A DNA stretch of 64,000 bases from an uncultured Gammaproteobacteria bacterium (GCA_963705725.1 CAVPKM010000020.1:42198-106197), one strand, 5' to 3'; positions 40,209 through 42,899 are shown, numbered from the stretch's first letter. Numbers and translations are program-made. Notes: generated by a model from the letters alone, not told the origin.

Positions 40209-40258
40209 GTAGAAGAATTAATCCATTTTCAATGGTATACAAAATATCCAGACCGCTT
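40209..40258. repeat. Direct repeat, left copy (displaced duplicate of the tamB 3' end)
   Basis: gtagaagaattaatccattttcaatggtatacaaaatatccagaccgctt matches 42851-42899 apart from one extra A. Confidence 0.97.
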
Positions 40259-40334
40259 AAGTGCAATTTAGCAGATGTTGATATGCATGGGTTGGCTCCA
40301 TTTTTCTAACAGTTTTTTGAACACTCCCAGTAAT

Positions 40335-41276
40335 CTATATTCCTAAGGTAGCAGTTGCTTCATCATTCATTTCTAGTAATTCATTTTTAAGCAAAGGCTC
40401 TAGCATTTCAAAAGAGATTTTTGCTTCAGGAATTTCATCATTAGAAAAGTGACAATTATTATCTTCAAGTGCAGATTTTATTTTATCCCATTGCTCAAAG
40501 TTTTTATTGAAAATAAAATATTCGCTTTCTCTATCGTTTTCAATTTTAATTGCACCCACAATGCAAAGAGGAGAAATCGTTTGATCGTCGAGATTTTTTG
40601 GAAATATTTCCTTTGCATCAAACACCCCACCCCATAAATTGCTCCTTGGATCCTTTTCTTTATTTGTCTCTATTAGATCTATGGAAAAATCGGAATAAGA
40701 GATATAACCATCTAGCAAAACGATGTATCGCCAATATTCATTCGTTGTGGCTTGAAGATAGCGAGCAGATGAATAGTTAGTACTTAATGCAAGTGCGCTC
40801 CAATTACTAACGAAAGGAGCATCATAAACATTCTGACCAAATACGGTGCAAGGAGAAGAGATTAATCGTGCTATACAGTTCAAAAGGACAATTCCGCTAA
40901 GAACTATATGGCAGGGAAAAAGGAAAGCATTTTTGGCCAAACACTCTAGATCTAAAGTATCACATGCCGTATCCATAGGAGGAAAGAGCTTATTGACTGC
41001 TCGGTAAGCAGAGTAAGCAGAGAACCCATCAGCAAAAATCATTTTTGGAGGGCGTTTATCAGCTCTATAAGCGATTGTCGGATCACTGACAACATATTTC
41101 CCCTCGATCACTTCATTTCTAAATTCACGATCTAGCCCGCAACTGCAAGGTATATTTACACAACAGTGCACACACGATTCACAAGAGCTATACGCTTTTC
41201 TAGGCCATTTAGATTTATTCGCATTTGGGTTTAAATGTTGCGCTTCCCGATTACTCTCTTCAAAAAAATTTTTCAT
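40335..41276 (-). CDS. Putative mono-ADP-ribosyltransferase (cholera/pertussis-toxin-like fold), Cys-rich
   Basis: YRADKRPPKMIFADGF (R71), ALSTNYSSA, AKE223, ISPLCIVGA and FNKNF occur in canonical order. Confidence 0.72.
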   Translation of the reverse strand: MKNFFEESNREAQHLNPNANKSKWPRKAYSSCESCVHCCVNIPCSCGLDREFRNEVIEGKYVVSDPTIAYRADKRPPKMIFADGFSAYSAYRAVNKLFPPMDTACDTLDLECLAKNAFLFPCHIVLSGIVLLNCIARLISSPCTVFGQNVYDAPFVSNWSALALSTNYSSARYLQATTNEYWRYIVLLDGYISYSDFSIDLIETNKEKDPRSNLWGGVFDAKEIFPKNLDDQTISPLCIVGAIKIENDRESEYFIFNKNFEQWDKIKSALEDNNCHFSNDEIPEAKISFEMLEPLLKNELLEMNDEATATLGI

Positions 41277-41322
41277 ACATCCTCTTTTTCTATAAATAAT
41301 GTTAAATTTATGTTATTTCGTA

Positions 41323-41365
41323 TTATAATCAGGTATTCTTAATAAAATATTAAATACTTTATAAT
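41323..41365. promoter_or_regulatory. PmrA-like box with a TATAAT on each side (divergent promoters)
   Basis: cTTAA-taaaata-TTAA (41338-41353); TATAAT at 41360 on plus, and a minus-strand TATAAT at ~41322-41327. Confidence 0.6.
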
Positions 41366-41496
41366 AAGAATATTAACTTTTAGTTTTTATCTGATAATAT
41401 GTAGCATGTTTAAATAATTCAAACACTTTGTGTGAGGGTGCTTACTTAGTGCTTTTTAGCGAATAAATTAAGAATAAATCTCGGAGTAGATCAAAA

Positions 41497-42769
41497 ATGT
41501 TCAAAGAAAATCATTCGGTACAAGATAGATTGATAAAGGCTATTTCAAAAGGAAAATTTGAGAATGTTAGGTCTTTAGTTAAATATCATAGCGCTTCATT
41601 GTCACTACCAAATTCAGAGGGGAAATACCCATTGGTAGCTGCAGTTCATGGGGTTCACATCGAAATTGCGCAATGGATAGAAGAGCAGTTGTCAGAGTCT
41701 GCATGCTTAAAACAATGGGAAATGGTTGACTTTCCAGTGATAAAAGAAAAAATAATTTCGATATTTCCTGAAAAATTTACTGATTTATCTAAATATTCCA
41801 CGACGAGTCCCTCCCGTCTTAGTAACCATAATGTATCAAGTGTCCATATATGGACTTTAGCTGATTGGTATAAACAATATAAAGATGCGCCATGGCGTTT
41901 AGCTTATGAAGATCATCAAAGAAAATAAGTTTTGTGATAATATAAGAACAGCATTGTCTAGTTGGACTCGTTGTTATGATGATGATTGGACAAAAATAAG
42001 TGAACGTGTAAAAACCAAATATGATATTAACGATTCACAAGAAAGAATATGTTACGTTCCTGCCTCGATAATCATAGTACACAATTGTGCAGTTGCCGCT
42101 GTTCAAAAACAGTTGAAATCGTTCCAGGAAAAAGTAGAAAACATGGCAGCTGAGACACAATATGAGACTTTTTTTCAAGCTGCGCAAAGCGGTAATGTAC
42201 CAAGGGTCCGTGCATTGCTAGAAAATGGTGTTAATATCAATGCCACCAGGAGTTCTGATCGCGCTACTGCCCTTATTCTTGCAGTGGGAAACAGAGAGTT
42301 TCAAGTGGTTGACACATTGTTAAAAAATGGTGCTGACGTCAATGTTGCTACGACTACAGGGATGACACCTCTCATGATGGCTATACAAGTAGGGCATATT
42401 ACAATCTTTAACGCATTGTTAGCTAAAAATGCCGATGTAAATGCTTGCTTGAATACAGGTGCAGGACCACTTTTTCTAGCAGCACAAAATGGCCGTGCCG
42501 ATATTGTTAGAAATCTATTAGATAAAAATGCAGATATGTCCTCTCCATTTGTGAGTACAGTTGAATCTCTCAATAGCTTCGCTAAACGTAGACATATTGA
42601 ACAGGCAATGACCGCATTCATTAATCAAAAAAAAGAATACGCAGGACAACACGAGATTAGGGTGAAACCTGCAGAAATTGCAGCGATTATGGGATACGCA
42701 GAAATTAAAAATTTAATCGACCAAGCTGAATATGAAAAATTATCATCACCTAGTTCCCTAAACTTATAA
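41497..42769 (+). CDS. Ankyrin-repeat protein (putative effector), frameshifted at ~41920
   Basis: N-terminal ANK (GKYPLVAAVHG) and four C-terminal ANKs (ATALILAV, GMTPLMMA, AGPLFLAA, LLxNGADVN). Confidence 0.88.
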
Positions 42770-42850
42770 TGGGGTTGCCATGAGACAACCTACCTAAAAA
42801 ATTAATTAATCAATGTCTGTGCTGTAGCTACCATAATTTTTAAGATAACT

Positions 42851-42899
42851 GTAGAAGAATTAATCCTTTTCAATGGTATACAAAATATCCAGACCGCTT
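42851..42899. repeat. Direct repeat, right copy (last 13 codons including stop of tamB, plus 9 nt)
   Basis: Matches 40209-40258. Confidence 0.97.

Follow-up and report, generated by a model that had tools for sequence, protein, structure and literature searches.

The window, a stretch of 64,000 nucleotides from an uncultured relative of Legionella and Coxiella (GCA_963705725.1, CAVPKM010000020.1:42198-106197), carries between tamB and a gene for an SDR oxidoreductase a unit of 2592 bp (about 2.6 kb) that is enclosed by a direct repeat and holds toxin- or effector-like genes (Table 1). The source genome, G000, is a 1.58 Mb assembly in 20 contigs that is 92% complete, and its congeners are designated G001 to G004. 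The original prediction described a repeat of 49/50 bp with one indel, made of the last 13 tamB codons and 9 nt and lying 3 nt after the SDR stop codon, with an ART gene and an ankyrin gene between its copies. The repeat is exactly so: the copies agree at 49 of 50 positions, the distal one (50 nt) has a single extra base relative to the proximal one (49 nt), the proximal copy consists of 40 nt of tamB (one base and 13 codons including the stop) and the 9 nt behind it, and the distal copy starts 3 nt beyond the SDR stop. The ART gene is also present, but the single ankyrin gene resolves into two ORFs that overlap by 23 nt and represent either a split gene or two genes; a weak search found no longer homologue spanning the split.

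Table 1. Features of the tamB locus, with positions counted from the first nucleotide of the window.
Feature	Position	Strand	Remarks
Large gene, presumed mscS-type	28446..31397	+	Conserved far boundary in G000, G002 and G004
Older variable zone, mscS to distal repeat	31398..40208		Mixed relics, no integrase remnant
SDR oxidoreductase gene, outside the repeat	39489..40205	+	Accessory by its distribution; no orthologue in four congeners
Distal repeat copy	40209..40258	-	One extra base; the decayed copy
Putative mono-ADP-ribosyltransferase (ART), 313 aa	40335..41276	-	Predicted Arg-Ser-Glu (pertussis/cholera/scabin) fold, Cys-rich insert
Divergent spacer, A+T-rich	41277..41496		One TTAA-N7-TTAA tandem, not above chance
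143-aa ORF	41497..41928	+	Weak N-terminal ankyrin match; 23-nt overlap with next ORF
Ankyrin-repeat ORF, 287 aa	41906..42769	+	Ankyrin match
Proximal repeat copy	42851..42899	-	Last 40 nt of tamB (stop 42860-42862) and 9 nt; att-like, keeps the TamB C-terminus
tamB, target gene	42860..46038	-	Two frames, 44959-46038 and 42860-45079
tamA, operon partner upstream of tamB	46035..47762	-	Annotation

A 29-nt part of the repeat has two matches in the window and none in 100 shuffles, and a search of the whole of G000 for further copies of the 49-mer returned just the two flanking ones (E about 1e-15). The repeat is coding, with no conserved inverted repeat or dyad symmetry. Read in the tamB frame, the distal copy would continue for 25 residues past TIE and into the SDR gene, and it is thus the decayed member of the pair.

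One contig of the public run X1 corresponds to positions 40013-40263 with zero differences and zero gaps, and the distal copy, its extra base and the join to the SDR gene therefore exist outside the source assembly. This contig enters the cargo by 5 nt, too few to count as bridging, and a second X1 contig matches part of the ART gene. Neither a tamB-SDR empty site nor a circle junction was seen in X1, where coverage is shallow, and runs X2 and X3 gave short chance pieces only. An artefact of assembly is extremely improbable: the genes nearby include split ones (tamB, the ankyrin ORFs, AbiEi and a TraB-family gene) and no single read or contig of X1 covers both repeat copies, but the distal copy and its extra base recur independently in X1, which also contains part of the ART gene, and the same anatomy is found in a second species, G002.

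The interruption of tamB itself lies near 44983-45010 and adjoins a run of eight T, while intact TamB proteins of 930-1066 aa are present in three congeners and in all 17 of the other close homologues listed; the position of the break and the full-length homologues make an assembly error the likely cause. One named comparison is with Coxiellaceae bacterium UBA6002, in which the TamB C-terminal region is 59% identical.

Beyond the unit, the interval from tamB to the next conserved gene is variable in both length and content. This boundary gene is mscS-type in G002 and G004, and its counterpart in the window is one that we take to be mscS-type from synteny. Between tamB and this gene G000 has 11.5 kb, G002 6.1 kb and G004 1.5 kb of DNA whose contents are unrelated, and the G000 unit is the tamB-proximal 2.6 kb of its 11.5-kb zone. 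The remainder holds genes for an FAD/TPR protein and a GyrI/Cass2 protein, a split AbiEi gene, a RelE/ParE-like relic with an HTH partner, a split TraB-family gene and an ankyrin-like ORF, and island-type relics occur in the zone beyond the unit in both G000 and G002. Between the mscS-type gene and the unit no degenerate copy of the repeat stands above chance, the best scores (25-26) falling below the shuffle maximum of 36. The SDR gene, judged by its distribution, is itself accessory, an orthologue being absent from all four of the congeners searched.

Two toxin-antitoxin relics can be recognized in the zone, the split AbiEi gene with a short downstream remnant (34240-35140) and the RelE/ParE-like fragment ahead of an intact HTH gene (38790-39380), and a perfect 41-bp tandem duplication (38578-38659) lies upstream of the TraB-family gene. 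On the other side of the locus, upstream of tamA, two ankyrin-like genes surround a pantothenate-kinase-like gene (47947-50376), whose place is taken in G001 and G004 by an unrelated gene for a membrane protein.

A second tamB duplication and a survey of relatives

tamB was found in three of the four congeners, and in G002 the end of that genome's own tamB is duplicated 3.9 kb downstream over 44 nt, of which 43 are identical and the one change is synonymous (score 83; shuffles reached at most 33). It had been proposed that relatives might carry different cargo at the tamB 3' end, and in G002 the cargo is indeed a phosphoketolase gene (xfp) and an acetate kinase gene (ackA), with xfp starting 22 nt inside the repeat. 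In G000 the repeat begins 1 nt, and in G002 6 nt, ahead of the same Ser codon, so that the 5' edges lie within 5 nt of each other, and the 3' end is 9 nt and 2 nt past the stop codon, respectively. A MITE-like element with 19-bp terminal inverted repeats (L034:13964-14254) is located between ackA and tamB in G002. Elsewhere in the genus xfp is found, with or without ack, on tRNA-linked islands in L151 (G001, an internally deleted copy) and L157:15641-19152 (G004), and in a plasmid search with the G002 unit xfp was the sole match.

The repeat cores of G000 and G002 differ at 9 of 32 aligned bases, as against one change within each species' pair, and in the TamB tree G000 falls outside the G004, G002 and G001 group (support 92/91), G002 grouping with the scar-free G001 and G004. 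The divergence of the cores between species, their near identity within each species and the tree together indicate, at the level of sequence, that the two scars are independent, recent events in non-sister species. The shared edge could also come, with no need of site-specificity, from a single ancient duplication that both species inherited and that gene conversion has kept alike, but this is very improbable: besides being non-sisters, G000 and G002 have TamA proteins that are 54% identical and TamB proteins that are 45% identical, the tamB-mscS interval of G004 is complete with one tamB end only and a neighbour that differs from that in G000, and the cargo and outer flanks of G000 and G002 are unrelated, with no decayed homology past the repeat edges. 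No arm-like sequence is common to the two units.

The G004 (97% complete) and G001 (87% complete) assemblies contain no second copy of the tamB end, the G001 contig stopping 1.27 kb after tamB, and a search elsewhere in G001, G002 and G004 found none besides the G002 scar; a 21/23 match to the tamB end in G004 lies inside a gene and is not a scar. Outside the genus, none of 68 tamB loci has a downstream copy. These loci comprise 62 genome regions, picked among the best-scoring matches with downstream room and including picks from 182 matching genomes of 300, together with G005 and five further loci, of which two are identical in sequence; they span 1.2-19.6 kb, and two of the C-termini are doubtfully called. 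Wider locus scans took in three genome and four metagenome loci, and order-level searches near the closest TamB relatives covered two to four genomes each.

Recombinases of the genus and duplications at other gene ends

The absence of a visible recombinase, noted in the original prediction, holds for the G000 unit and for the 8.8 kb beyond it. When 27 integrases from the genus served as queries, no integrase remnant was detected in either unit or in the zones beyond, and the same search did respond to a control unit at the G004 tRNA-Thr gene. An integrase linked to the repeat was sought as well, and none was found in the four congeners (incomplete genomes), viral contigs or phages, or, with 18 queries, at less than 10 kb from tamB in 60 loci outside the genus. 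Among 11 congener integrase neighbourhoods examined, 10 are at tRNA or tmRNA genes and one is without an assigned site.

G000 has two PF00589 genes. One, L002 (L002:868-2136), encodes a XerL-like protein of 422 aa that is 49% identical, at 96% coverage, to a Coxiella plasmid recombinase and has homologues (73%) in G001 and G003. The other, L001, is a solitary tyrosine recombinase of 334 aa with a homologue (53%) in G002 alone among the four congeners, and is thus distributed as the tamB scar is, a coincidence in two of four testable genomes, from incomplete assemblies, that has a chance expectation of 1 in 6. L001 is part of an integrated plasmid-like region at about 33-67 kb of contig C10, with a relaxase, partition genes and IS copies; the labels in this region, including that of the presumably KfrA-like gene beside L001, are our assumptions.

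The original prediction saw in tamB the attachment site of a minimal module mobilised in trans, and the part of that claim concerning a recurrent insertion site is upheld by G002, whereas trans mobilisation is not, no linked recombinase having been found. In its fullest form the idea is that the tamB 3' end is a docking site for dedicated, recombinase-free cassettes of 2.6-3.9 kb that occur genus-wide and are excised and inserted in trans by a recombinase encoded elsewhere in the genome, of the L001 type of tyrosine recombinase. This is unlikely. Both units are small and tidy, with fresh repeats and no integrase remnants, the start of xfp within the repeat is reminiscent of a promoterless cassette, and the L001 pair of genomes is the scar-bearing pair; but the chance level of that match, the plasmid-like location of L001 and its flanks, which do not match the tamB core, count against it, as do the XerL-like nature of the other solitary recombinase together with a repeat that is not dif-like, and the finding of a single unit per genome with no array and no second copy elsewhere. 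A dif/IMEX reading of the repeat was rejected on its coding nature, its lack of dyad symmetry and its match to 11 of 20 bases of the palindrome beside Coxiella xerL. A perfect palindrome on contig C3 was also discarded as dif, being unconserved in four of four congeners, and the search of the 20 contigs did not locate the true dif; cumulative GC skew climbs across the entire window and does not turn at 40-43 kb.

Units of 2.3-6.7 kb that are flanked by att copies and lack an integrase do exist in the genus at proven integrase targets. At a tRNA-Pro gene, G001 has an integrase-free unit of 2.8 kb with a 45/45 repeat (L156:5781-8699) and G004 has an integrase-bearing island (L155:10292-15327), and the G004 tRNA-Lys gene (L166-L167) has elements accreted in tandem, with five or more att copies and three integrase-free units. 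A tRNA-Lys island of G002 has within it a tandem array of about 113-bp units (L163:6942-8460).

A rescan of G000 flagged 11 of 1131 gene ends for a downstream duplication, and once transposase, paralogue and internal-repeat rows were dropped four conserved genes were left: tamB (50 bp), lpxB (231 bp), mfd (175 and 164 bp) and a gene that is probably nlpD (161 bp, 81% identical, with a gap of 186 nt). The lpxB scar (95% identical; C17:105611-107744, L175) surrounds an RCC1-repeat effector-like gene, and the mfd scar (about 330 bp, 92-97%; C17:147223-149274, L174) covers the ends at which mfd and a TenA-family gene converge and encloses an Rpn/YhgA-like gene, of which G000 has several copies. 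Overall, the scars range from 50 to 330 bp and from 81 to 98% identity, and no edge motif is common to them. In 381 kb of congener DNA, fetched pieces that are a non-random sample, one of 228 gene ends was flagged, that of tamB in G002, with none among the other 227, and class-level DNA gave none in 1012. The lpxB scar is not present in G002 or G004, and the G001 sequence ends too early to include it. If a scar is expected at about 0.4% of gene ends, the chance of meeting one again at tamB in one congener out of three is 1%, although such recurrence would be much less rare if only gene ends bordering variable zones were counted; the matching 5' edge may be regarded as a further argument for site-specificity.

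Acquisition of the units and comparison with known systems

Duplications of the tamB end occur in two species, with a common 5' edge, unrelated cargo and no recombinase. We tentatively prefer the reading, to which we would give nearly even credence, that the tamB 3' end is a recurrently used att site and that the element has lost its integrase, as in CIMEs. A circle bearing a copy of the tamB end would be integrated by a site-specific enzyme, probably a tyrosine integrase, so that tamB stayed whole and its end was present once more on the far side; the integrase and transfer genes would later be deleted, and an att-flanked passenger unit would remain, heading an older accretion zone. Alone this unit could not move, but it could be excised or carried along should a cognate integrase-bearing element arrive. 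The low background of scars, the shared edge, the independence of the events and the integrase-free units at proven integrase sites in the genus are counted for this interpretation. Counted against it are the lack of a tamB-linked integrase and of an empty site or circle, the other scars in G000, the proximal position of the units with their fresh repeats, the lack of a shared arm sequence, and the number of positive genomes, which is two. Of the alternatives in the original prediction, a module mobilised in trans or the relic of a larger island, the relic is the better supported.

CIMEs of Streptococcus are similar in that their cargo lies between a pair of att copies at a protein gene's 3' end and in being integrase-free (PMC5704250 and PMC7563491, in the text available). 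According to the accessible part of PMC7563491 they occupy 1.2-13 kb at the 3' ends of protein genes, a range that includes the G000 unit, and are found, as it is, in accretion zones. The G000 unit further lacks relaxase and conjugation genes as well as an integrase, and both of its ends are, as sequence, copies of the 3' end of the target gene (attL/attR). It differs in that neither a tamB target nor this host group was found in the literature searched, and that no parent ICE or IME and no integrase was found. In S. salivarius tandems, moreover, CIMEs are those elements farthest from the target gene (PMC7563491, same portion), whereas the G000 and G002 units are proximal to it with fresh repeats.

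A close rival, somewhat less likely, is insertion with a long duplication of the target. DNA from outside would be taken in next to a conserved gene through break repair or by homologous recombination with a single crossover, without a dedicated recombinase or att site, and part of the target would be duplicated in the process; tamB would recur since a variable zone adjoins its 3' end and since short repeats outlast long ones. The housekeeping-gene duplications of varied length do imply that a general process acts in the G000 genome: three or four such scars are at conserved genes among the 1131 ends, with no common edge motif, those of lpxB and mfd enclose an RCC1-repeat and an Rpn/YhgA-like gene, and no integrase is called for. 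Precedents are provided by Haemophilus, where 46-bp duplications overlap gene 3' ends in the absence of mobile genes (Furuta et al. 2010, PMC2853133, available sections), and the G000 repeat resembles the class described there in being longer than 30 bp and unique in the genome, around an insert of less than 20 kb that has no mobile genes. In the same sections, however, the class has variable lengths and restriction-modification cargo, the latter as a criterion of the survey, whereas the cargo here is ART and ankyrin (G000) or xfp-ackA (G002), and the length, varied across G000, is nearly fixed at tamB (two of two). The two independent tamB events, in two species, also concern the same gene with 5' edges no more than 5 nt apart, and the absence of the lpxB scar from G002 and G004 and the 0/227 in congeners argue against this rival as well.

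A third system, the XerL/dif IMEX site of Legionellales (LME-1), shares with the tamB units the host group, integration without a recombinase of their own and, in L002, a XerL-like gene, but is described in the available text of PMC9765430 as intergenic, about 30 bp and palindromic, unlike the coding, non-palindromic tamB repeats of 44-50 bp. The locus had been put forward as the best candidate for an undescribed system; its anatomy is in fact that of CIMEs and of insertion with long target duplication, and what is apparently unreported is tamB as an insertion target. No site pairing tamB (ytfN) with integration was found in the literature, a scope that leaves supplementary integrase-target tables outside.

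How single effector genes are gained without visible mobile elements in bacteria bearing Dot/Icm is poorly explained, and the finding of such a scar at the same protein-coding site in two species opens the route of acquisition to testing. It predicts either a family of tamB-targeting integrases or a recombinase-free insertion process that also delivered the RCC1-repeat gene at lpxB.

The cargo and its host

The ART of the G000 unit has 22 other matches among 50%-identity representatives, one cluster member being labelled Tatlockia sp., and the cargo thus adds an uncharacterised family of at least 23 ARTs of the pertussis/scabin fold. All 18 aligned homologues, a set that left out five short, long or weak matches, have R71 and E223 without variation, and eight of the 18 match the Pertussis_S1 profile below its cut-off. 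The top matches of the structure model (pLDDT 82.6) in Foldseek and VIA are all of the Arg-Ser-Glu class (TreX, scabin, PltA, CARDS and pertussis S1); against TreX the VIA comparison gave Z 10.2 and rmsd 2.8 over 117 aligned residues, and the next seven rows are of the same class. The protein is therefore predicted to work like an Arg-Ser-Glu mono-ART, with the conserved Arg and Glu as its probable catalytic residues, and it differs from the known members in its identity of 14-20%, its Cys-rich insert and its central motif. The central Ser-Thr-Ser motif of the class is replaced at 156-166 by a conserved non-canonical stretch, and family members have 6-19 Cys, many in the insert between the Arg and this motif, which could possibly be a membrane anchor or a metal site. 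A further difference is that no B-subunit or immunity gene was seen in the unit. Homologues were not found in any of the four congeners with the G000 ART as query. An N-terminal acidic dileucine motif was considered and dismissed, fitting strictly in four of 19 proteins and not in the G000 ART.

The spacer between the ART gene and the ankyrin ORFs was predicted to hold a shared PmrA-like promoter, which is not borne out: the simplified PmrA motif occurs in 59 of 459 intergenic regions and in 9.7% of shuffles, and the search for a PmrA-type regulator gave no Trans_reg_C match in G000 (92% complete), against matches in all four congeners. Scans for sigma-70 promoters and terminators were at shuffle level.

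By homology G000 carries Dot/Icm genes: contig C1 ends, and C20 begins, with orthologues of most genes of the G004 IcmK region, and IcmK itself is absent from the assembly, its expected position falling between these two contigs. Gene names other than IcmK are presumed. The ART fold and the ankyrin repeats, together with the Dot/Icm genes, make it probable that the cargo is effector material of the Dot/Icm system, meant for a protist host. On contig C1 there are also, at 100-16400, about eight RCC1-like repeat genes in tandem, each encoding about 530 aa.
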